DNA from: Escherichia phage J8-65
Sequence record: NC_025445.1
Reading direction: 5' to 3' (one strand)
Length of the DNA stretch: 40,981 bases
The notes below the pieces were generated by a model. The model made no database searches. It saw only the letters and a list, made by a program, of their open reading frames with translations, and was not told where the DNA came from. The number at the start of each line of letters is the position of its first letter. Positions within the stretch are counted from its first letter, which is position 1. Position numbers and translations under genes: made by a program. This document shows positions 24,423 to 40,650 of the stretch, piece after piece.

Positions 24423-24971
24423 GTGACTCTACTCGAAGCAGTAAACATTGTTCTTCGGGCATTGTCTGAGCACACCGTATCCTCGACTGAGATTCGAAAC
24501 CCGTCCGTCACTCTTGCCCTCGACAAGATTGCCATCGCACAGGAAGAGGTTCTCACTGACGGTTGGTGGTTCAACAACATCCGAATCACCATTCCACGCG
24601 AGTCGGATGGTCGAGTCAAATACCCCGCAGACGCACTGAGCTTCATCCCGGATGGGTTTGAGTGTATCGTGCGAGGCGGGTATCTTTACAACGCCCAATC
24701 CCAAACCTTTGTTTTTACTGAGGATGTTCCGGGATTGGTTACTTATGACCTTGAGTGGGATGACCTTCCAAGTCCAGTCCAGCGACTGGTTGCGTATCAG
24801 GCAGCCATCTCTGCGTATGCTGATGATATGGGAGACAATCCTCCGGTGTCGGTTACTGGCGGCTATGCGAACGCATTGCAACAGTGCCAGTCTATCCACA
24901 CCCGTCAACGTCGATTCAATGCTCGCCAGCGTCAGAGCTGGTGGCGATATGAGAGTGCTCGGAGAGGATAA
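24423..24971 (+). CDS. tail tubular protein A (182 aa)
   Basis: GTG start 7 nt after AGGAG; N-terminus parallels T7 gp11; position. Confidence 0.75.
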   Translation: MTLLEAVNIVLRALSEHTVSSTEIRNPSVTLALDKIAIAQEEVLTDGWWFNNIRITIPRESDGRVKYPADALSFIPDGFECIVRGGYLYNAQSQTFVFTEDVPGLVTYDLEWDDLPSPVQRLVAYQAAISAYADDMGDNPPVSVTGGYANALQQCQSIHTRQRRFNARQRQSWWRYESARRG

Positions 24972-27415
24972 TGCCAGTTTACCAAGGCTCGTATAAATCC
25001 ATCCTCGGCGGCGTAAGCCAGCAGGTCTATACTGACCGACAGCTATCGCAGGTTGAGGAACAGGTCAACATGACCTCCGATACCGTTCGTGGCCTGCGCA
25101 AGCGCCCCGGCACTCGCCTAAGTCGTGACGTAAGTTCGACCAACGCGACTGTATGGAGCCTTGGAAATTTTGGCCACCTCCGGTTCTACACCACTAACTT
25201 AGGGTGGGGGATTACCACGTTCATCGTTAACACGAAGACCGGGTACGTGACCTCCATTGTAGAGACAGAGACTGTCCAGTTCATGGGGCAGTCGAATTAT
25301 CTCATCGCAAATAACCCCGACGACATTGTATTCACGACCGTGGGCAACACCATGTACGTTGCCAACTGTTCCAAGCTGCCCGTGCTAATCGAGAACGAAA
25401 CGCGAATGAATCCGGGTCGCCGGGGTTACTATTTCGTGCTGGCTGGTTCCTATGGGAAGCAGTACACAGTGCGCGTACAGACCACGCTCGGTGCCGTGAG
25501 CGCAACGTACACGACGCCCAATGCAGACCAGACCAGTGCGTCTGACCATGCAACGCCAGAGTACATCATCAGCCAGCTCAAGTCTCAGCTCGACGCCGCT
25601 GTGGGTGGTGCTTCTGGTCTTGAGATTGTTCAGGCTGATGGTGCGTACCTGTACCTGCAATGCACTGAGGCTGCGGCAGATATGAACGTGTCAACCTCGA
25701 CAGGTTCAACGTACGCCATTGCATCCAACACCCACACTGTAGACCTGACCACAAAGCTCCCGGCGAGACTGCCTGCGGCGGCGGGTGGGTTCATCATGAC
25801 TGTGGGCGACGCCAGCTTCGCTCAATACTTCCAGTGGAGTTACAATGACTCGCGCTGGGTTGAGAAAGGTGCCTACGGTTCCCCGACCGGGATTAACCCA
25901 AGCACCATGCCGCTGGTGTTCAAGACCTCCGCTACCACGAATCAGCACACTTTCGCTCAGGGTAGCTGGCCGGGCCGCTTGGCTGGTGATGACCTGACCA
26001 ATGCCATCCCTGCATTCACCGATGCGAATGGTGTGGGTATCACTGGCTTGGCCTCGTTCCAAGGTCGCCTGATTGTATTTAGCGGCCCGTACATCACAAT
26101 GGGTTCCAGCAACAAGGACGACCGGAACAACTTCTTCCGCACCACTGTTACGCAGGTGCTGGACGATGACCGCATTGAGTTCACAGCATCCAGCTTCGCC
26201 GGGGCTTCGTTCCGGTACGGGGTGCCGTTCAACTCTGACCTGATTCTGGCCAGTGAGGAACACCAAGCTGTCATCCCCGGACGCAACCAAATCCTGACGC
26301 CGAACAACGCCACCGCCGTGTTGACCTCGACGTACCAGATGGACACCGGGGTATCGCCGACCACCTCTGGCCGCAGCCTGTATTATTCGTACCCGCGCTC
26401 GAACAGCTCGTTCTCCGTCAAGGAGATGCTGCCGTCCGGTTACACGGATTTGCAGTACGTGAGTCAGGACGTGACCGACCACCTGCCGACTTATCTGGAA
26501 GGAGCTAACAGCTACATCTCTGCCAGCACCACGAACAACATCGTCGTGTTCGGCTCGACCACTGAGAAGTCCACGCTATACGTGAACGAGTACCTCTGGT
26601 CAGGCGATGAGAAGGTGCTGTCGTCTTGGCATCGCTGGGAGCTATACGGCACCATCCACGCCGCATGGTTCGTCCGTGAGGTTCTGGTTGTGCTGGTTGA
26701 GCAGCAGGGCCACATGAACATGCTCACGCTGTCCATGCGAGATTCTCCAGACCCGACTGACCCGACGCGTTTCCTCCCGGCAACGGATTACAGCCAGCTC
26801 ATGACTGTGACCAACCCGGCGACGGACAGCTCGTACATCCAGTTCGCGGCTGACGGAATCCAGAAAGCGCTGTGGGATATCATCCAAGCCCGGTATCTGG
26901 CTGATGGCAACTGGGATTTCATGACCACGGTTGTGCCGTCCGGCCAGTACATCGGTGCCGAGGTTGGTATCAAGTCCATCGACACTGCGAACCGACGTGT
27001 GTACCTGCAACCTTCGTACGGCAGCACATCGCTGTATGTGGGCCTGCGATTCACTGCAACGTTCAGCCCTACGCCGCCGAGAATCTTCAACGGCGACGGT
27101 TCGTATATGGACGTGAATAAGATGGTCATCATGCACTACAACTTCACGTTGCGGTACACGAGCCTCTTCACCATCACGGCCAGTGACCGTGGGGCGTACT
27201 CCGCACTGAACATCATCTCCAGCCCGATTCGGTACACGAGTCAGGAGCTGGGTCTGGAGTCAGCAACTCTGGCGAAGCGTGCGCACCTCAAAGTGCGTAT
27301 GGGTCTGGAGGTTGAGTCCAGCAGCATGGTGGTCACGTCCACTACGGCAGGCGACCTGAACATTCAAGGTTTAGGTTATTACATCAAGTTCTATAACAAG
27401 GTTCGGAGAATTTAA
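24971..27415 (+). CDS. tail tubular protein B (814 aa)
   Basis: size (T7 gp12 ~794 aa) and position. Confidence 0.8.
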   Translation: MPVYQGSYKSILGGVSQQVYTDRQLSQVEEQVNMTSDTVRGLRKRPGTRLSRDVSSTNATVWSLGNFGHLRFYTTNLGWGITTFIVNTKTGYVTSIVETETVQFMGQSNYLIANNPDDIVFTTVGNTMYVANCSKLPVLIENETRMNPGRRGYYFVLAGSYGKQYTVRVQTTLGAVSATYTTPNADQTSASDHATPEYIISQLKSQLDAAVGGASGLEIVQADGAYLYLQCTEAAADMNVSTSTGSTYAIASNTHTVDLTTKLPARLPAAAGGFIMTVGDASFAQYFQWSYNDSRWVEKGAYGSPTGINPSTMPLVFKTSATTNQHTFAQGSWPGRLAGDDLTNAIPAFTDANGVGITGLASFQGRLIVFSGPYITMGSSNKDDRNNFFRTTVTQVLDDDRIEFTASSFAGASFRYGVPFNSDLILASEEHQAVIPGRNQILTPNNATAVLTSTYQMDTGVSPTTSGRSLYYSYPRSNSSFSVKEMLPSGYTDLQYVSQDVTDHLPTYLEGANSYISASTTNNIVVFGSTTEKSTLYVNEYLWSGDEKVLSSWHRWELYGTIHAAWFVREVLVVLVEQQGHMNMLTLSMRDSPDPTDPTRFLPATDYSQLMTVTNPATDSSYIQFAADGIQKALWDIIQARYLADGNWDFMTTVVPSGQYIGAEVGIKSIDTANRRVYLQPSYGSTSLYVGLRFTATFSPTPPRIFNGDGSYMDVNKMVIMHYNFTLRYTSLFTITASDRGAYSALNIISSPIRYTSQELGLESATLAKRAHLKVRMGLEVESSSMVVTSTTAGDLNIQGLGYYIKFYNKVRRI

Positions 27416-27416
27416 T

Positions 27417-28151
27417 ATGGGTTGGGCTGTCTTCGCCAAAGCTGGTGCTGACGCCACGAACTCTTTCATTACCACGTATGCGCAAGGACGCGCTGAGCGT
27501 GCGCAGATGAAAGCTGTGCAAGCCGAGAATGAGCGGCTGAACAAGCAGACGTGGCAAGCAATGGGCCAGCGTATCAATACCGTCAACCTCCAGCGTGGGC
27601 TGCTCCGGCAGCAGACTGGCACCGACCTGTACAACATCAACAAGGAAGCGAACCGCGCAGCCGGGGCGAGCATCAACAACGCCGCCGCTGCCGGGATTGA
27701 AGGTGCGTCGGTCGATGAGGCGGTTACGGATATCAACCGACAGAATCAGGAAAGCCAAGCGCAGACCAGATTCAATGAGCAGGTTCAGGAGATGAACCTT
27801 GACACCAGCATTGAGGATATCGTGAACACGGCTGTGGCCGCTCAGCGCTACTCTCAGAAACCAGCAAGCAACAGTGTTATCCTTGGCCGCGCCATCGGCG
27901 TGTCGGCAATGCAGTTCGCGTCCAGCCTTGCGCAGACGAGTTTCAACTACATGCCTACTGAGGGTGCCAAAGGTGCTGGTACGACTGGTGGCTCAGGTGC
28001 TACGGCATCGACGTTCGACAATCTCGGAACGTCTGCCAGTTACAGCACCACCAATTGGATGCAGAAGGCCGGGGAGTTTAACCCTGTGCCAGCGCAGTAT
28101 GATTCTAATCGTTACTTGGGCTATGGCTCTGGTAACATCTTTGGGAGCTAA
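27417..28151 (+). CDS. internal virion protein A (244 aa)
   Basis: position after tail tubular B; Gln/Ala-rich. Confidence 0.65.
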   Translation: MGWAVFAKAGADATNSFITTYAQGRAERAQMKAVQAENERLNKQTWQAMGQRINTVNLQRGLLRQQTGTDLYNINKEANRAAGASINNAAAAGIEGASVDEAVTDINRQNQESQAQTRFNEQVQEMNLDTSIEDIVNTAVAAQRYSQKPASNSVILGRAIGVSAMQFASSLAQTSFNYMPTEGAKGAGTTGGSGATASTFDNLGTSASYSTTNWMQKAGEFNPVPAQYDSNRYLGYGSGNIFGS

Positions 28152-28153
28152 TC

Positions 28154-30850
28154 ATGGCAACTATGCGTGACCAGCGTGGCGCTAACCTTAACGCTGCGCA
28201 GCAGGGCGTACCAAATGTGCAGCAGGCTCAGACTCCGTTCAGTCTCGCAGGCCGCGATACTCGCATTGACACGTTTCCTACTGAGTCCATCCAGCGCATC
28301 ATGAACATGGCCAGCAATCTCGCTGGTCAGGTTACTGAGCGTGCGGTTGAGGAAGAGTATCTGAAAGGTGCGAACGCGGCAGCGTCCGGCCAAGCTGTGG
28401 AGGATTTGGACTCCAACTGGCTGACTGCCGAGTTCCACAAGGCTGGTTATAACGACCAGTACAAGCGTATGCAGATGGCGCAGGCTGCCTCTGATATCTC
28501 GGCCAACATGACCGAGTACGCGAAAATGTCTCCGCAGGACTTCCTGAAAGTCGTTGACCAGAAGACGCAGAGCATCTTCAACAACACTGATGGCATGACC
28601 ATGAATGGTCGTAGGTCGCTGCTGGAGAACCAGCTCACGTTCAGCAATACGCTGATTCGTACGCAGGCTGCTCAGCACGGCAAATACCTGATTGAGCAGC
28701 GTGCTTCTATGTACAATGCGCAGGGTAATACTCTCGTTACTCTGGCGGCTCAGGCTAAGGCAACGGGCGACGGCGGCGCGTACGCTAACGCCACGGCTGC
28801 AACGATGGCATGGGCCAAATCCATTCTGGCCGATGAGAAGCTGCCGCTGGAAACCCGGCGTACTCAAGTCGTGTCCATGATGAGCAACATGCTGTCACAA
28901 GACCTCCGCACCCCGGTGGAGACCGCCGTTAACTCCGGGATGTTCAACGATTTGCCTGCTGATGATTTGGCCAAACTTCAAGGCCAGATTCGTGAATCGA
29001 AGAACCGCACCGAGGTTCAGGACAACATGGGATTGCTGGAGCAGTACGGCCAGCTCAATGCACGTCAGGCAGTCTTCGGAGATGTAGACCCTAAGACGTA
29101 CACTGGCATCCTCCAGCAGCTCGCAGATAACAAGCTCATATCTGCGTCCGGCTACAGCTCTGCTATCGAGGGCTACTACAAGGACTACGCCAAGCAAGCG
29201 AAGGCCAACCAGCTCGGTCAGGCATACGCCACAGGGAACCAGACGTACATGCTCCAGCAGGGCGCGAGCGAACAGGATGGTGCCGACGCATTCATCAAAG
29301 CTCGCATGAAGCAGCCGGGCGCGACGGCAAGCTCCGTGGCATTCGACCTGCTGCAAGTTGGCGCACAGACTGGCTTCCCTTCTGCGTATAAGTCTGCTGC
29401 CAAGCTGATTGAGCCAGCCCTGTCGAACTTCGGCACCGTGGACGAGATGAACCCTGATGCCGCCGCTACCGTGACCGGGCTGATTGACCGCGTAACTGTG
29501 GCAGAGAATCAGGGTGACAAGACCGCATGGACGAAACTACTGTCTGGTCTGTCCGAAGAAAACCAAGAGAAGATGGTGTACATGCGCGAGCAGATTAAGG
29601 CTGGCCGTACCATCAACCAAGCGGGTCAGGGTTACATTAAGCAGCAGCAGGATTACGCTGGCTTAACCCCAGCTCAGAAATCCCAAATCCTCACTCAGCG
29701 TCAATCTGACGTTAACAGTGTGGTAGGCTCCCTTGAAGCACAGGGCTTCCTCTCTCGCACTTGGCAAGGTCTGGCTGGTCTGTTCTCAGACACTCAGCGC
29801 AACCTGTTCCAAGCTCGCGTCGCATCTGGTGACATTACTGCTGCGCAGGAAATGTCGGAGGTGTCTGCCGCGTACCGCGAAGAGTTGCAGGCTGTCGTGC
29901 TCAAGAACCCGAACATCACGAAAGACGGTATGGAAGCTCTCGCGTCTGCGAAGCTGGCCAACCGCGTGCTGCGTGTGGGTGAGTCTACTTTCAGCCCCGG
30001 CAGTGTGCTTATCGCTCCGAGAAACCAAACTGTTCAGTCTATGCTTGGCTTGCCTGCTGACGTGGCACCAGACCGTATCGGTCGTGCTATCGCCTCACTT
30101 GACCAGAGCAAGGCACCAGAAGGTTTCGAGACGTCGTACTCGTTTATGCCCGATGGTTCGCTCAACGTTCAATACTTCAACAAGACAGGTGACGTATCTC
30201 CGAACAGCTACCGGATTACTCCGCAGGCTATTCAGGAACGCATCCGTGAAGATGACCGGGCGGCGGCCACCGCGAACAACGAAGTCTACGGCGACGGGAA
30301 ACTCTTTGTCGATAAGAACAGCAACATCGGTATCCGCGTCAACGGTGTCAATACCGCTGGTGTGGAAGAATCCTACATGTTGCAGGCTCGTGGCAAGCTG
30401 ATTGAGTTCGAGGGTATCCGTAACCAGACGTACCGTGACAGCACAGGCGTCCAGACCAACGGCGTCGGCATCTCTAACCGCAGCCCGTACTTTGCAGAAG
30501 GTCAGGCTTCCGGTATGAAGGGTGGCACGGAGTGGTCTCCGCGCACCATCCACGACACGTTCGTGAACCACACGAATATGGTTGCCCGGCAGATGCCCGG
30601 TCAGGCAGCGGCGCTCGGTTGGAGTCGTGACAAAGACGCTCAGTTCCAGTTCATGATGCAGATGGGCTATCAGGCTGGCACCGACTGGTATCGCTCTGGC
30701 GGTGCTTACGGCAAGCTGGCTGATGCAATCCGCGTCGGCGACCGGGAGCAGGCGTTGCAGGCACTGTCCAACACCCCGGCGTTCAAGCTGTCTCAGGATG
30801 ACCGCAAGCAGTATTACATCCAAACTCTACTCGCAGGTATGCAGGAATGA
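28154..30850 (+). CDS. internal virion protein B with C-terminal lysozyme-like domain (898 aa)
   Basis: C-terminal ~150 aa (FQFMMQMGYQAGTDW...REQALQAL...) parallels the T4-lysozyme C-lobe. Confidence 0.75.
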   Translation: MATMRDQRGANLNAAQQGVPNVQQAQTPFSLAGRDTRIDTFPTESIQRIMNMASNLAGQVTERAVEEEYLKGANAAASGQAVEDLDSNWLTAEFHKAGYNDQYKRMQMAQAASDISANMTEYAKMSPQDFLKVVDQKTQSIFNNTDGMTMNGRRSLLENQLTFSNTLIRTQAAQHGKYLIEQRASMYNAQGNTLVTLAAQAKATGDGGAYANATAATMAWAKSILADEKLPLETRRTQVVSMMSNMLSQDLRTPVETAVNSGMFNDLPADDLAKLQGQIRESKNRTEVQDNMGLLEQYGQLNARQAVFGDVDPKTYTGILQQLADNKLISASGYSSAIEGYYKDYAKQAKANQLGQAYATGNQTYMLQQGASEQDGADAFIKARMKQPGATASSVAFDLLQVGAQTGFPSAYKSAAKLIEPALSNFGTVDEMNPDAAATVTGLIDRVTVAENQGDKTAWTKLLSGLSEENQEKMVYMREQIKAGRTINQAGQGYIKQQQDYAGLTPAQKSQILTQRQSDVNSVVGSLEAQGFLSRTWQGLAGLFSDTQRNLFQARVASGDITAAQEMSEVSAAYREELQAVVLKNPNITKDGMEALASAKLANRVLRVGESTFSPGSVLIAPRNQTVQSMLGLPADVAPDRIGRAIASLDQSKAPEGFETSYSFMPDGSLNVQYFNKTGDVSPNSYRITPQAIQERIREDDRAAATANNEVYGDGKLFVDKNSNIGIRVNGVNTAGVEESYMLQARGKLIEFEGIRNQTYRDSTGVQTNGVGISNRSPYFAEGQASGMKGGTEWSPRTIHDTFVNHTNMVARQMPGQAAALGWSRDKDAQFQFMMQMGYQAGTDWYRSGGAYGKLADAIRVGDREQALQALSNTPAFKLSQDDRKQYYIQTLLAGMQE

Positions 30851-33800
30851 TTACACAAGAATCGCTCGACAAGTTCATGGCTCCCAAGCAGGGGGCCAAC
30901 GCCCCTACGCTGGTGATTCCAGCTCCCGTAAAAGCTGAGACGCTCAGCACTCCACTGCAAGATGCCACTCGTCAGGGTGCCGTTGAGCAGTTCGAAAAGA
31001 TGCAGGAACTGGAAGCCACTCCGATTGCCACGGCGTTGAGCGCTTCTGTGAAGAACTGGGATACCACTCAGCTCTTTGATGCCGCCTTCAACAAGCCTAC
31101 TTTTCAGGCTGACCCTAACTTCAAGCCCAATGAGGCATTGCAGCAGGTTCAGTTCCCGATTGGTGAAGACGACAGAACCTTCCTGTTTAAATCCAAATCT
31201 ATGGACGAGTTCAACTGGCGTACGCAGCAGCTCCAAGAGATGCGCGAGCGTACCCAGTTGGCTCAAACTGCCCCGGTGATGAACGCGGTTCTGCAATTTG
31301 CTGACCCGCTGTACCTCGCCACCGACCTGCTCTCGATGGGAGCAGGCACTGCCCTGAAACTTGGTCGCCTCGGAACCGCCGCTGTCGGTGCAGCTTCAAC
31401 TGCTGCTGCTATGACAGCGGTGGGTAATGAAGCACGCCCAGTGTCTCAGAACGAAATCATCTTCGCGGCTGCCCTGCACGGGGCGGCCACCACTGCATTC
31501 TATCGCCCGGCCCCGGTACAGCGCTCGCTGGCCGATATGTCGCCGGAGGAATTTGCAGCGGAGATGCAGCGACGTAATGGTATTGACCCGAACAACCCGC
31601 CGCAGTTTGACCCGGAGAATGCTATGGCTCCGCTGGCCATGTCGCTGGGCTTCGGTGGTCGTCGTGGCGCTATGGAGGTGGATGAGGTTCCTGAGTCTAT
31701 CCGAGCCACCGCACAGCGCGGCCTTGACCTCGCACGCCGTGGTGAGCAGACAAACCCCAAACGCCCATTCCTTGAGTGGTCTCTGTTCAAGACGTTCAGC
31801 CAACACTCGGACGAATCCAGTGCCCTCGCCGGGCGTCTGCTGGATGACCCGTTGAACCCCAACATGACCTCCGCTGCGTCTATTCAGCGCGAGACTCAGG
31901 CTCGCTTCGGCGTGCTGCTGAACCAGTATGAGGACACACTGCGCCACGCCCTGAACACGGATGGCTGGACTAACGTGCGTCGATTCGTTGACCCGGTAGG
32001 CTATCGCCGTGCTCAGCAGGAGTTCGAGCAGGCAGTTCGACTTGAGCTGGACAGACGTATGATTGACCCTAACTTCAAAGGGGCCAATGCTAACGTGGCG
32101 CAAGCTGCTGACAGACTGGGTGAATACTCGCGTGCTGTTGGCCGGGAGCTGGAGGCTAAGGGCATGGTTGAGCCGGGCTTCGTCGAGAAGAACCCGTACT
32201 ACTACCCGCGCCGGATGAACGTGACCAAGGTTGAGCAGGCTGAGCAACTGCTCGGTAAGAAAGCCTTCATGAAGCAAATGACCACTGCTGTGCAGCGCGG
32301 TATCGGCTCTGACCGTCCTACTGCCAACGTCATTGCACATGCGATGGTAGAGCGTGCTCGCCGTAAGGGTTACGGTATCGACAACTCCGGTCACATCATC
32401 AACAAGGAGGGCCGCGATGAGCTGCTCGAAATCATCAACAACGCGAAGGGATTCGACGAGGCTGCCAAGGCCCGTGCGTCAGCACTCCTTCGTGAAGCCG
32501 GAGAGGATTCTGGTAGAGCGCCAATGCTTAAAGCGCGTATCAACATTGATATGATGCACCAGCTTGGCCCTAACTTGCAGGTGCGTGACCTGTTCGATGA
32601 CAGTATCGCCAGCATGATGGACAGCTACAACCGCCGCATTACGGGGCGACTGGCTCTGCATGAGGCTGGTTTGGGTACTGACGCCGAACGCGCCGCAGCT
32701 CGTGAGGCTCTGGCCAAATCTATCCCGGACGGCAATGCGCGTCGTCAGGCTCTCGACCAATATGACAACATCATCAGCTATTACATGGGTGCGCCCGTAG
32801 GTGAAGAGATGCCGCAGTTCATGCGCCAGCTCTCCGCGCTGACACAGGCCACTGGTTTGGCTGCTTCTGGTTTGTGGCAGTTGGTCGAATACGGTACGAT
32901 GATGCAACGTTTCGGGGCGGTCAATACATTTCGCGCCATGATGCGTACAGTTCCCGAAGCACGGGCACTATTTAAGCAGATGCGAGCATCTACAGTGGAA
33001 GGACGCCAATTGGCTCTCGACACTGAGGAAGCTCTTACGGCTGCTGTGGCGAGCGATATTCGTATGCGTCCTATCATGCAGCACTACGACGATATGTTCT
33101 CTGCGGATAAGTCTCCGTGGGTTATGCGTATGGAACACCTGCGTGACGCCACGATGTTCATCAACATGCAGAAATACATCCACTTCCATCAGACCCGCAC
33201 CAACGCCGCACTGGTTATGCAGACGCTGCGTAAGGCTGCCGAGGGTGATGCGAAGGCTATCGCTGCCATGAAAACTTACGGTGCTAACGACCAGCTACTG
33301 GCCGATATCCGCAAGGAAGTTGGCAAGTCCGGCACCAAGCCGGATGCGTGGGATGAAGGTGTATTCAACCGCTCCCGCATTGTCATGATGAACGCTATGG
33401 ATGACGCTATCGTACGCGCCCGTGTGGGCGAGCTGCCTGCATTCGCTGAGTTCAGTACCCTCGGTAAGTTCCTGTTTACGTTCCGTCGATTCGTCGCGGC
33501 AACGCACAACAAGACGCTGGTGGGTACTTGGAACCGTGAAGGTGCCCGTGGACTGGCTACGCTTATGGCTTACCAGTATCCGCTGGCAATGATGGCTACG
33601 GCTGCGAACAATGTTATCTCTGGCAAAGGCTTCGACGATAAGCGACCTATTGGTGCGCTGGCTGGTCAAGCACTGAACTATCTCGGTGCCATTGGCTTCG
33701 CCTCCGAGTTCACTGGTGTCCTGACTGGACAGCAGCGCAGCTTCGGTGCGCCGGGTCTGCTGTTCCTTGACCGCATGTACGGTATTGCTGGCGCAACTGC

Positions 33801-33948
33801 TGCGACTGGCGGTTCCCTGCTGTCGGGTGATATTGACCAAGCTGGGCATGATGCTCGCAAAGCTGCGGGTAACATCATTCAAGCACTTCCCCTCATTTCC
33901 ATTGTGCCGGGTGTCCGAGCACTCAACGAAGCAGTTAAGGGCGAATAA
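30847..33948 (+). CDS. internal virion protein C (1033 aa)
   Basis: largest structural ORF, position as T7 gp16-like ejection protein. Confidence 0.7.
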   Translation: MITQESLDKFMAPKQGANAPTLVIPAPVKAETLSTPLQDATRQGAVEQFEKMQELEATPIATALSASVKNWDTTQLFDAAFNKPTFQADPNFKPNEALQQVQFPIGEDDRTFLFKSKSMDEFNWRTQQLQEMRERTQLAQTAPVMNAVLQFADPLYLATDLLSMGAGTALKLGRLGTAAVGAASTAAAMTAVGNEARPVSQNEIIFAAALHGAATTAFYRPAPVQRSLADMSPEEFAAEMQRRNGIDPNNPPQFDPENAMAPLAMSLGFGGRRGAMEVDEVPESIRATAQRGLDLARRGEQTNPKRPFLEWSLFKTFSQHSDESSALAGRLLDDPLNPNMTSAASIQRETQARFGVLLNQYEDTLRHALNTDGWTNVRRFVDPVGYRRAQQEFEQAVRLELDRRMIDPNFKGANANVAQAADRLGEYSRAVGRELEAKGMVEPGFVEKNPYYYPRRMNVTKVEQAEQLLGKKAFMKQMTTAVQRGIGSDRPTANVIAHAMVERARRKGYGIDNSGHIINKEGRDELLEIINNAKGFDEAAKARASALLREAGEDSGRAPMLKARINIDMMHQLGPNLQVRDLFDDSIASMMDSYNRRITGRLALHEAGLGTDAERAAAREALAKSIPDGNARRQALDQYDNIISYYMGAPVGEEMPQFMRQLSALTQATGLAASGLWQLVEYGTMMQRFGAVNTFRAMMRTVPEARALFKQMRASTVEGRQLALDTEEALTAAVASDIRMRPIMQHYDDMFSADKSPWVMRMEHLRDATMFINMQKYIHFHQTRTNAALVMQTLRKAAEGDAKAIAAMKTYGANDQLLADIRKEVGKSGTKPDAWDEGVFNRSRIVMMNAMDDAIVRARVGELPAFAEFSTLGKFLFTFRRFVAATHNKTLVGTWNREGARGLATLMAYQYPLAMMATAANNVISGKGFDDKRPIGALAGQALNYLGAIGFASEFTGVLTGQQRSFGAPGLLFLDRMYGIAGATAATGGSLLSGDIDQAGHDARKAAGNIIQALPLISIVPGVRALNEAVKGE

Positions 33949-36332
33949 TGGCCAATAGCTACAACGCATACGTGGCAAACGGAACGCAGACCGCGTTCCT
34001 TGTCACCTTCGAACAACGAGTGTTCACGCAGATTCAGGTGTACCTTAACTCCGAACTCCAGACGAGTGGGTACACCTACAACTCCGTGACCAAGCAAATC
34101 ATATTTGATACCGCCCCGCTCGCCGGGGTGATTGTCCGACTACAACGGTACACCTCAGAAGTGCTGCTGAACAAGTTCGGTCAGGATGCTGCCTTCACTG
34201 GTAGCAACCTCGACGAGAACTTTGAGCAGATTCTCTTCAAGGCAGAAGAGACGCAGGAAGCATGGCTGGCTCCGCTTGACCGTGCCCTGCGCGTACCGAA
34301 CTCTGAGGTGTCAATCAACGCACTGCCTAACGTCGCAGGCCGCCGCAACAAGGCGCTGGGCTTCGACAACAACGGCCAACCCTTCATGGTGCCGCTGGTT
34401 GATATACCCGACTCTGCGCTGGCTATCGCGCTGGCGATGAATGACGGCGGTAAGTGGATTGGTACTCTCGGCGGTGGCACATTCCTCGACCGTCAGGATA
34501 CTGTCTGCCTGTCTGAGTTCACCAACAACACTGGTTACGCCTCTGTCGCCGCTGCGTGCCAAGCCTGCTTCGACTACGCCAAAGCCAACAACAAGGTTGT
34601 GGACGCTCGCGGTTGGGAAGGTACTGTGAACTCAACCATCACTATGGATGGTATCGAGGTTGTCGGCGGTACGTGGAACGGCACAGCGGATATCCGTCTG
34701 CTGAATGCTACGTTCCGCAACTTCTCTGCATCAAAGGTTCGTGTCTGCTACTGGGGCGGTAATGTACGCATTGCTGATTACGAGTTCACTGACCACCCAT
34801 CGGCATCGAAAGTTGCCAGCATCCTGTTCCAAGGCAACATCGCCGGGGGCAGCTACGTCATTGAGAACGGCGTACACCGCAACGGTTACTTCGGTATTCT
34901 CCAGCAGGGTACTGGTGAGGCCATTGATAACGGTGTGATTCGCAACATCGCTCTGATGGATATGTCCGGCGACGGCATTGAGATGAACGTAATCAACAAG
35001 CACTATGACGGTGGCCTGTCGATTGAGAACATCTACCTCGAAAATATCAACGGTATCAACCCAACCTCCAACCCATCCTTCGTCTCCAACTGGGGTATCG
35101 GGATTGGTCTGGCTGGTCAAGGGCCGTTTGGCTGGGATGCTGCTGAGACCCAGTACGCGAAGAACATCACAGTCCGTGGTGTCCATGCTCCGCGTGGCGT
35201 GCGTCAGGTCATCCACTTCGAGGTGTCCAAGAACTGCTCGGTGTACGACGTACACGCTAACCCTGACCTTACTGTCTCCAACGGTACAGGTCTGACGGCT
35301 GCTGGCGTTATTACCTACGGCTGCAAGGATATCGTCATTGACGGCGTGTACGGTGAGCCTATCGTGGGCAGCACAGGTACTGACCCGGCTGCTGTGCGTC
35401 TCGTGATGTGCGAGTGGGGTTCCAACCAAGCAGGTGCTGGTGGCGTGCCGGGTGCATCGAACCCATCGTTCAACATGACCCTGCGTAACATCTACACCAA
35501 GACTGGCCGTATCTACGCTGGTATTGGTTCCGATGATGTGAACACCAACGTGTACCACCTTGAGAACATCCACTGCTACCGTCTGAGCCTCTTCGGTGTG
35601 GCCACCATCCTGAACATGACCAACGTGACGGGTGTTGACTTCGACTGCGTAGGCGATGACTCCAGCGGCGGTACGTCCTCCAACGGTGTGTACCCGCGAC
35701 GCAAGACCGTCCTCAATATGGTGAACGTGAACTTCTATGGCCCCGGCAACACCGAGGGTGCCCTGTACAGTAAAGCTCGCTACTCGGATATCAGTACGCT
35801 GAACTCCAACGTGCGTGCTATTCCGTACACCAACATCCAAGGTGACGTCGGCGTTATCCTGTCTCCGGTCAACCGTATGTACACACTGCCGAACGACCTC
35901 GCAACTCTGACTGGTGGGGAGTTCCCGACTGGTAAAGAGTTCTGCGAGGGTACGGTACTGTTCAAGACGGACGGTACAGGTGGTAACTTCATCGTGACCC
36001 GGTTCGGTGCCTACATCCCGGACGACGGCAACAACTTCAAGGTGCGTGCTGCTGCCGCTGGCCAGACGTATCTGGAGCAGAACCTGACTCCGGCTGGTAC
36101 TCAAGCCTCGACCTCGTGGCTGTATCATAAGCCTATCTCTGCTGGTACTCGCCTGAACATTCCGGGCGCAGGGCCAAGCGGCGGTACGCTTACGGTCACT
36201 GTGATGCGAGCGCCGTATCAGGTAGACAACAACATCGGGAACCCGGTGCGCATTGATATCAGCCCGGCAATCGTAACTGCGATTCCGGCAGGTACTCAGC
36301 TCGCCGCCACGTACCCGGTCGCATTCATCTAA
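33948..36332 (+). CDS. tail fiber / tailspike with probable beta-helix depolymerase domain (794 aa)
   Basis: N-terminal ~120 aa parallels T7 gp17 tail-attachment domain; central region has repetitive NG/GG-rich beta-helix-like repeats. Confidence 0.75.
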   Translation: MANSYNAYVANGTQTAFLVTFEQRVFTQIQVYLNSELQTSGYTYNSVTKQIIFDTAPLAGVIVRLQRYTSEVLLNKFGQDAAFTGSNLDENFEQILFKAEETQEAWLAPLDRALRVPNSEVSINALPNVAGRRNKALGFDNNGQPFMVPLVDIPDSALAIALAMNDGGKWIGTLGGGTFLDRQDTVCLSEFTNNTGYASVAAACQACFDYAKANNKVVDARGWEGTVNSTITMDGIEVVGGTWNGTADIRLLNATFRNFSASKVRVCYWGGNVRIADYEFTDHPSASKVASILFQGNIAGGSYVIENGVHRNGYFGILQQGTGEAIDNGVIRNIALMDMSGDGIEMNVINKHYDGGLSIENIYLENINGINPTSNPSFVSNWGIGIGLAGQGPFGWDAAETQYAKNITVRGVHAPRGVRQVIHFEVSKNCSVYDVHANPDLTVSNGTGLTAAGVITYGCKDIVIDGVYGEPIVGSTGTDPAAVRLVMCEWGSNQAGAGGVPGASNPSFNMTLRNIYTKTGRIYAGIGSDDVNTNVYHLENIHCYRLSLFGVATILNMTNVTGVDFDCVGDDSSGGTSSNGVYPRRKTVLNMVNVNFYGPGNTEGALYSKARYSDISTLNSNVRAIPYTNIQGDVGVILSPVNRMYTLPNDLATLTGGEFPTGKEFCEGTVLFKTDGTGGNFIVTRFGAYIPDDGNNFKVRAAAAGQTYLEQNLTPAGTQASTSWLYHKPISAGTRLNIPGAGPSGGTLTVTVMRAPYQVDNNIGNPVRIDISPAIVTAIPAGTQLAATYPVAFI

Positions 36333-39270: not shown

Positions 39271-39762
39271 ATGAAACTGTCTCGGCTATTGGCCGGGGCA
39301 GTCCTCTCATTGTCTCTGACTTTGACGGGCTGCTCCGCAACTAGCGCACTGTCTGCTGTAACTTCGGCTGTCTCTCCTAACAAGCCGGAACTGACGGCAC
39401 AGGTAGGTGCAGAGAACACGAAGCAAGGCATCGGTGTGACTGCGAAACAGTCCGACGAAACCGAAGTCGGTGACGTATCAGGTAACGCGAAAGTGGATAC
39501 CGCTAAACAGGGTAGTAACGCTACGACCGTCAAGGACGTTACAGGCGGCTCTGTAAACGCTTCTAAGCAGGGGTCTCAGATGACCCAAGGGAACGTACAG
39601 GCTAAGACTGTTATCGTCTCACAGAGCGACCCACGCAGCCTATTGTGGGCATTTGGCATGGGCCTTACGTGTATTCTTGGTTTGGTAATGTGGTTTGTAC
39701 CATCTCCGTGGAAGAGGAAGGTAAGAGATGACGGAAGCAAAACGAAAGGAGCCGACTCCTAA
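39271..39762 (+). CDS. candidate unimolecular spanin: lipoprotein with C-terminal TM helix (163 aa)
   Basis: N-terminal signal with lipobox LTLTGC; C-terminal LLWAFGMGLTCILGLVMWFV TM segment then basic tail; topology as phage T1 gp11. Confidence 0.55.
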   Translation: MKLSRLLAGAVLSLSLTLTGCSATSALSAVTSAVSPNKPELTAQVGAENTKQGIGVTAKQSDETEVGDVSGNAKVDTAKQGSNATTVKDVTGGSVNASKQGSQMTQGNVQAKTVIVSQSDPRSLLWAFGMGLTCILGLVMWFVPSPWKRKVRDDGSKTKGADS

Positions 39763-40114
39763 CATCCACTCGCGTATGGGTGCAGTGGAGGCTCGTATGC
39801 AGACCGTAGAACTACGCCTCGACAAACACGAAGTGCAAATCGCTAACCTTGAGAAAGGCGACGCTGCGATGCTCACGAAGCTGGCTGAGAACGACTCGCG
39901 CTGGCAGCAGGTTCAGCAGCAGCTCTTGGTGGTCGAGCAGATTCAGGATATCCAGAGAACTATGAGCCATATCGGTAAGTTGTTTACGGCGGCAGCACAC
40001 GCCGTCAAATGGTGCCTGTTAACCGCATCCCTGTGCAGCGGTGTGTATTTAGCAATTAAGGCTGGCGACCTCACAGCTCTCCAGTCCTTTATCACAAGCA
40101 TTATGGGGATGTAA
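39728..40114 (+). CDS. lysis-cassette membrane protein, candidate atypical holin (128 aa)
   Basis: GAGGAAGG RBS; ~85-aa coiled-coil-like N-terminus then one hydrophobic segment WCLLTASLCSGVYLAI; sits between spanin and endolysin. Confidence 0.45.
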   Translation: MTEAKRKEPTPNIHSRMGAVEARMQTVELRLDKHEVQIANLEKGDAAMLTKLAENDSRWQQVQQQLLVVEQIQDIQRTMSHIGKLFTAAAHAVKWCLLTASLCSGVYLAIKAGDLTALQSFITSIMGM

Positions 40115-40650
40115 TGACTAACTTTGAAATCTGTATGAAGTTCACCGGGCTGGCAGAAGGCGGGTACACCAAGCTGCCCGGTGACACTGGAGGGGAAACG
40201 AATCATGGAATTAGCGACGCTCGTGATGGCAAACTGGATGGCCGAATTTGTGGTGTCCCTACTGGGCTTGGTGGCTCTATTTGTGTGCCTGTCAAACAGC
40301 TCACCAAAGAGCAAGCCAACGCTATCTACCGGGCCGAGTATTTCGACCCCATCAAAGGTGACGAGCTACACCCTGCGATTGCATGTGCCGTGTTCGACTA
40401 CGGTGTCAACTCCGGTATCAGCCGTGCGGCGAAAGCTCTACAGCGGGTATGCGGCGTTGCACAAGACGGGGTTATTGGCCCTGCAACCGTGGCAGCAGCC
40501 AAACGTCTGGAACCTCACTCCGCAGCAGCATCCATCTGTGACCTTCGTATTGCGTTCCTAAAGGCTTCTACAGCCCCGACAATCGTTCGGTATAGGGATG
40601 CCTTGGTTGCCCGTGCAAAACGCTGTAGCGCGTACTGTGCGACGTTATAG
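40114..40650 (+). CDS. endolysin, GH108 muramidase with PG_binding_3-like C-terminal domain (178 aa)
   Basis: N-terminal LAEGGYTKLPGDTGGETNHGI matches the GH108 EGGY motif; C-terminal region resembles PG_binding_3; no N-terminal SAR/TM segment. Confidence 0.75.
   Translation: MTNFEICMKFTGLAEGGYTKLPGDTGGETNHGISDARDGKLDGRICGVPTGLGGSICVPVKQLTKEQANAIYRAEYFDPIKGDELHPAIACAVFDYGVNSGISRAAKALQRVCGVAQDGVIGPATVAAAKRLEPHSAAASICDLRIAFLKASTAPTIVRYRDALVARAKRCSAYCATL

Follow-up and report, generated by a model that had tools for sequence, protein, structure and literature searches.

A C-terminal T4-type lysozyme domain on the gp15-like internal virion protein of Escherichia phage J8-65

The J8-65 protein among phiKMV-type ejection proteins

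A T4-type lysozyme at the C-terminus of a gp15-like ejection protein is a documented feature of phiKMV-type podoviruses, established by biochemistry for phiKMV gp36 and by cryo-electron microscopy (cryo-EM) for phage Ar-KM and Pectobacterium phage PhiM1. According to the account of Lavigne 2004 and Briers 2006 given in PMC5380687, phiKMV gp36 has an activity of ~4800 U/mg, and its C-terminal domain is an active and highly thermostable lysozyme. The survey in the Ar-KM preprint covered 127 Autographivirales ejectosomes with a muralytic domain, which was C-terminal on the tunnel protein in 31, of the T7 type in 86, and central in 10; in the Dunnvirinae, the domain lies centrally (~residue 300) and not at the C-terminus. 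Here we describe the corresponding protein of Escherichia phage J8-65 (NC_025445.1), whose 40,981-bp sequence, taken as a whole, is the window of this analysis. The protein is encoded on the + strand by an intact open reading frame (ORF) at 28154 to 30850 (898 amino acids plus the stop) and is an ordinary instance of the phiKMV-type arrangement. We consider it very probable that it is the middle ejection protein of a phiKMV-like podovirus and that its C-terminal GH24 lysozyme opens the peptidoglycan at entry.

The 898-amino-acid protein matched the PHROG family phrog_2083, labelled "internal virion lysozyme motif," over its entire length (residues 1 to 898 on profile positions 2 to 905 of 908, E 7.3e-225). 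It also matched the "Internal virion protein" chain of the PDB entries 28sd, 9sfd, and 9sfn (E 2.6e-32 by sequence and 1.5e-111 by profile), which has the same length of 898 amino acids and which we call phiKMV-type on the basis of that length, its companion chains of 181 and 1337 amino acids, and its similarity. This chain, phiKMV gp36, and Ar-KM gp42 share with the J8-65 protein the PHROG 2083 family and the position in an operon of gp14-, gp15-, and gp16-like genes. Ar-KM gp42 has its T4-type lysozyme at the C-terminus (residues 740 to 881), as in J8-65, and so does the PhiM1 octameric ejection protein (OEP; 8vb2_E), whose lysozyme-like domain spans Gly718 to Ser903. A first-pass annotation, made from the sequence alone, had likened the J8-65 protein to the phiKMV arrangement, and this likeness held in the end-to-end PHROG 2083 match, the C-terminal position of the domain, and the place of the gene in the middle of the ejection operon. 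On the other hand, the J8-65 protein was only ~21-30% identical to the phiKMV-type proteins, whether over its full length or in the domain alone; its phage infects E. coli, in contrast to Pseudomonas for phiKMV; and the loop after the β-hairpin of the domain carries a 5-residue insert relative to the phiKMV-type proteins.

More distant comparisons concern the muralytic module and its carrier. The N-terminal transglycosylase of T7 gp16 is a functional analogue, being likewise a muralytic module on an ejected core protein at a comparable height of the ejectosome. SP6 gp36, K1E gp35, and the gp15-like protein of K1-5 have their muralytic activity on the gp15-like tunnel protein rather than on gp16, a likeness taken from the literature. 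T4 lysozyme (T4L; gene e) and the lysozyme domain of T4 gp5 share just 14-18% sequence identity with the J8-65 domain; the T4 gene e product is a free enzyme and T4 gp5 sits on the baseplate spike, whereas the J8-65 lysozyme is one domain of a podovirus ejection protein.

A full-length structure model of the J8-65 protein, with a predicted local distance difference test (pLDDT) score of 87.6, showed a disordered N-terminus (residues 1 to 57), a long all-helical body (55 to 602), a small β/α region (605 to 729), and then the lysozyme domain, which runs to the very last residue. In a Foldseek search with this model, the top match was PhiM1 8vb2_E, i.e., the octameric ejection protein in the pre-infection ejectosome (E 2.9e-17), and T4 lysozymes matched the C-terminal part. 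The match to T7 gp15 (6yt5_A) was weak (probability 0.99, E 9.5e-3, TM-score 0.22-0.29), and a profile search of the 898-amino-acid protein against PDB did not match T7 gp15 by sequence. We assign residues 1 to 736 (28154 to 30361, + strand) as the putative gp15-like tunnel part from the full-length model and the fold matches, and the designation gp15-like leans on synteny and on the PhiM1 and Ar-KM literature. None of the three ejection proteins is represented by a model in NCBIfam.

Orthologues within the genus already bear the names "internal virion lysozyme motif" (Lidtsur gp45 and LF82-23) and "Peptidoglycan hydrolase" (Cronobacter phage RZ4), but the smaasur and J8-65 records state only "internal head protein." The practical value of the present assignment thus lies in an improved annotation of these two records. 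It may also offer a candidate muramidase that is thermostable and directed at E. coli, and a simple system, having just one muralytic module, in which to study what virion-associated lysins contribute at entry.

Fold, catalytic residues, and selection of the lysozyme domain

The last ~160 residues of the protein were confirmed to form a complete T4-type (GH24) lysozyme domain with intact catalytic residues, which we place at residues 737 to 898 (30362 to 30847, + strand). To collect homologues, residues 720 to 898 were searched exhaustively against 1.8 billion cluster representatives, which returned 117 sequences; nearly all of them were 880-940 amino acids long, with the domain match ending 0-18 residues from the C-terminus. 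A profile built from 51 homologue domains found T4 lysozyme, the T4 gp5 lysozyme domain, and other GH24 members in PDB with E values of 1e-6 to 1e-4, T4L itself being matched at E 8.5e-6, and an hhalign comparison of the domain family with T4L gave E 4e-6. An AlphaFold2 model of the domain, predicted from the homologue alignment, reached a pLDDT of 93.5 and a predicted template modeling score of 0.90, and Foldseek matched it exclusively to GH24 lysozymes. The model has the two-lobe α+β architecture of T4L. The first-pass annotation had proposed a lysozyme-like domain at the C-terminus of an 898-amino-acid internal virion protein, likened to the C-terminal lobe of T4-type lysozyme. The likeness goes beyond the C-terminal lobe, since the whole two-lobe fold is present. 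The start given there (30371) corresponds to codon 740, and the peptide quoted begins at residue 831.

The residues expected of such an enzyme are in place. In the hhalign register, E753 (GAG, 30410 to 30412) corresponds to the catalytic Glu11 of T4L, D762 (GAC, 30437 to 30439) to Asp20, T768 (ACC, 30455 to 30457) to Thr26, and G770-x-G772 to G28/G30; the three codons were checked on the + strand. Among the 117 homologues, Glu was found at position 753 in 116, Asp at 762 in 111, and Thr or Ser at 768 in 104 (87 Thr and 17 Ser), while G770 was kept in 115 and G772 in 112. Y839 and Q840, aligned with F104-Q105 of T4L, were likewise conserved, the former in 115 of the 117 and the latter as 104 Gln and 13 His. 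A near-invariant arginine, R884 (CGC, 30803 to 30805, + strand), is probably the equivalent of T4L Arg145, the salt-bridge partner of Glu11, an equivalence drawn from conservation because the hhalign alignment ends one residue before it; Arg occupied this position in 116 of the 117 homologues. Both E753 and R884 were invariant in two further alignments, one of them of 69 full-length sequences.

The lysozyme domain is under purifying selection. Its ratio of nonsynonymous to synonymous substitution rates (dN/dS) was 0.04 against smaasur, compared with 0.02 for the rest of the protein, and 0.063 against Lidtsur, compared with 0.134 for the rest. Such low values make a decayed or purely structural remnant unlikely. 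Conservation also bears on the idea that the domain persists chiefly for a structural purpose in the pre-ejectosome or ejectosome, as a DNA-coiling groove or a determinant of tunnel geometry, with cleavage marginal or dispensable. The PhiM1 lysozyme-like domains do form a groove along DNA-like density, and those of Ar-KM point outward at a fixed tunnel height. A purely structural role, however, would not preserve Glu in 116, Asp in 111, Thr or Ser in 104, and the R884 arginine in 116 of the 117 homologues, and the C-terminal domain of phiKMV gp36 (gp36C) is enzymatically active; we regard this explanation as unlikely, and structural and catalytic roles are in any case mutually compatible.

The same residues speak to the chemistry of cleavage. 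Lambda R, a transglycosylase, belongs among the GH24-fold enzymes, and the J8-65 domain could in principle resemble it in combining the T4L fold with lytic transglycosylase activity, which would yield 1,6-anhydro-muropeptides. The Ar-KM preprint makes no distinction between "lysozyme" and "transglycosylase" in naming this domain, and the cleavage chemistry of such domains is seldom tested experimentally (PMC5380687). However, D762 and T768 align with Asp20 and Thr26, the hydrolase signature, which argues for a predicted muramidase rather than a lambda R-type enzyme and leaves the transglycosylase a very improbable candidate. The enzymology of T4L, on which this argument leans, is well established.

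Immediately upstream of the lysozyme fold lies an N-G-x-N-[TS]-A-G motif (residues 730 to 736, 30341 to 30361, + strand; codons checked) that has no counterpart in T4L. Its conservation was about on par with that of the catalytic residues, N730 being kept in 104, G731 in 114, and N733 in 108 of the 117 homologues, and G731 was invariant in the 69-sequence full-length alignment. The motif might have a function in its own right, e.g., as a hinge or as a self-cleavage or release site by which the lysozyme is freed or repositioned once ejected, although we hold this to be quite improbable.

The 5-residue insert, S-G-M-K-G (residues 786 to 790, 30509 to 30523, + strand), is located in the loop after the catalytic β-hairpin. 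Its columns were gapped in 112-114 of the 117 homologues, fewer than 5 of which share it, and it is lineage specific, being kept in smaasur and present as AGMRG in Lidtsur. It was disordered in both structure models, as the sole low-confidence stretch of the domain. Residues 771 to 795 of the model form a loop at the place where T4L has helix B.

A word-indexed protein search with the domain returned three short fragments only, two of them labelled Cutibacterium acnes by NCBI. The latter come from contigs of ~520-550 bp and are 73-78% identical to the coliphage lysozyme domain; they most likely stem from phage reads that contaminate those assemblies.

Predicted role at entry and the ejection operon

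From the relatives of this protein, we infer packaging in the virion, ejection, muralytic activity, and a role at entry. Capsid packaging and ejection have been shown by cryo-EM and mass spectrometry for Ar-KM and PhiM1 only, and in Ar-KM, the core is stacked on the portal with a 4:8:8 stoichiometry (Ar-KM preprint). By analogy with these relatives, the gp15-like body would stack on the portal within the capsid as part of a stacked core. On adsorption, the protein would be expelled through the short tail before the DNA and refold in the periplasm, where the body would form a tunnel whose lysozyme domains point outward, level with the cell wall. Hydrolysis of MurNAc-GlcNAc bonds by these domains would open the wall locally and give the tunnel and the gp16-like protein access to the inner membrane for DNA entry. 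The C-terminal domain of phiKMV gp36 refolds after exposure to 95°C, a behavior that, if shared by the J8-65 domain, would be compatible with an unfolded transit of the tail.

Several observations weigh against this assignment of an active entry lysozyme. As a single sequence, the domain scored 16.5-19.6 bits against PF00959 (Phage_lysozyme), below the gathering cutoff of 22.3 bits, and just 19 of 51 family members matched PF00959 at E<0.01. The Foldseek E values of the domain were modest (1e-3 to 1e-2). Muramidase activity of the J8-65 domain is, moreover, extrapolated from relatives that are ~25-30% identical in the domain. Finally, Moak and Molineux reportedly found in 2000 that T7 can do without the gp16 transglycosylase when conditions are optimal, which also favors the structural explanation considered above; because that enzyme is analogous, the J8-65 lysozyme domain may matter only conditionally. 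Mutants of the T7 gp16 transglycosylase are reported to show a conditional delay in DNA entry. The subthreshold Pfam score is made up for by the profile-based matches to T4L given above (E 8.5e-6, and E 4e-6 by hhalign), and the domain appears to be a divergent GH24 subfamily rather than a nonmember. Other single-sequence searches were in line with this divergence: the sequence also gave a weak match to a PHROG endolysin family, and phmmer with the domain alone against PDB returned a best E of 0.012, for the phiKMV-type chain, with nothing significant to T4L.

The lysozyme gene is the middle one of a three-gene ejection operon that lies between the tail tubular protein B and tail fiber/spike genes. 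The order of ORFs is 24971 to 27415 (phrog_457, tail), 27417 to 28151, 28154 to 30850, 30847 to 33948, and 33948 to 36332, and the gene order is identical in the annotated genomes of Lidtsur and smaasur. The first of the three ejection genes (27417 to 28151, + strand) encodes a gp14-like internal virion protein of 244 amino acids, which matched phrog_4295, "internal virion protein" (E 1.8e-56), and, in PDB, the PhiM1 ejection protein 3 (8vb2_M) and the 181-amino-acid phiKMV-type chain 28sd_C. The third (30847 to 33948, + strand) encodes a gp16-like internal virion protein of 1033 amino acids that matched phrog_342 and aligned in PDB to 9sfn_G, 8vb2_A (the PhiM1 tetrameric ejection protein, TEP), and 23sg_S, a 1337-amino-acid phiKMV-type chain being among its PDB matches. 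An ATGA at 30847 to 30850, in which the stop of the lysozyme gene overlaps the start of the gp16-like gene, suggests that translation of the two ejection proteins is coupled.

The gp16-like protein had no Pfam family at E<0.01, and its phrog_342 match began only at profile position 178; it thus lacks the N-terminal transglycosylase of the T7 type. Consistent with this, a search of its N-terminal 320 amino acids against PDB matched phiKMV-type gp37 alone, and no domain of the soluble lytic transglycosylase (SLT) type was found in its first ~160 residues. The contrast that the first-pass annotation had drawn with T7, where the transglycosylase sits at the N-terminus of gp16, was thereby borne out. 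Compared with phiKMV-type gp37 of 1337 amino acids, the J8-65 protein is ~300 amino acids shorter: its residues 46 to 213 and 317 to 1033 aligned to 61 to 235 and 610 to 1337 of that chain, and the ~270 residues missing in between fall roughly at the extra endolysin/exotransglycosidase-like insert of PhiM1 TEP (Asp268 to Asp528), which the J8-65 protein appears to lack. The RefSeq and PHROG label of the gp16-like gene, "internal virion protein with endolysin domain," might be read as implying a second muralytic domain; this was rejected on the missing Pfam match and the missing region, and for Bonnellvirus the label is probably incorrect. We infer that this ejectosome has a single recognizable wall-degrading module, the lysozyme at the C-terminus of the gp15-like protein. 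If that is true, the phage would provide a clean natural test of whether virion muralytic activity is essential.

Downstream of the operon, the 794-amino-acid protein encoded at 33948 to 36332 (+ strand) gave a subthreshold match to PF03906, the T7 tail-fiber N-terminal adaptor (23.0 versus 25.2 bits), and its relatives are annotated as colanic-acid-degrading tailspikes.

Genome context and the separate lysis cassette

The window has a GC content of ~55-57% with almost all genes on the + strand and is essentially a complete genome of Bonnellvirus (Autographiviridae), a genus described in PMC7552041. In the region of the lysozyme gene, it shares 97.2% identity with Escherichia phage smaasur, a phage assigned to Bonnellvirus J865, and 84-86% with ~15 other phages, comprising coliphages and phages of Enterobacter, Cronobacter, Kosakonia, and Pantoea.

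A late lysis cassette at 39271 to 40650 (+ strand) comprises a spanin-like gene, a 128-amino-acid ORF, and a GH108 endolysin. The endolysin (178 amino acids, 40114 to 40650, + strand) matched PF05838 above the cutoff (E 1.5e-21) and carries a PG_binding_3 domain, and its orthologue Lidtsur gp54 is annotated as endolysin. Neither a hydrophobic N-terminus nor a signal or signal-arrest-release (SAR) segment was found in it; in this, it departs from phiKMV-like phages, for which a SAR endolysin has been described.

Because a separate endolysin is encoded in this cassette, we rejected the lysozyme of the 898-amino-acid protein as the phage endolysin. A late role as a lysis enzyme or helper, instead of one at entry, might be suggested by its being a peptidoglycan hydrolase from a late gene and by the ability of phiKMV gp36C to lyse permeabilized cells from without. 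However, the domain is fused to an ejection body of ~730 residues, the protein has neither a hydrophobic segment nor a signal or SAR sequence, its gene sits in the structural module between the tail and tailspike genes, and the phage carries a dedicated lysis cassette, which includes a GH108 endolysin and a spanin-like gene. We give a late function next to no credence and prefer the wall-opening role at entry.

Within the cassette, the 128-amino-acid ORF (39728 to 40114) overlaps its neighbors and has a weakly hydrophobic C-terminus, and no obvious holin was identified. The 163-amino-acid ORF at 39271 to 39762 has an N-terminal lipobox (LTLTG/C) and a single C-terminal transmembrane segment (~residues 122 to 145), a predicted architecture of a unimolecular spanin rather than of an Rz/Rz1 pair; its Lidtsur orthologue is annotated as "Rz-like spanin."

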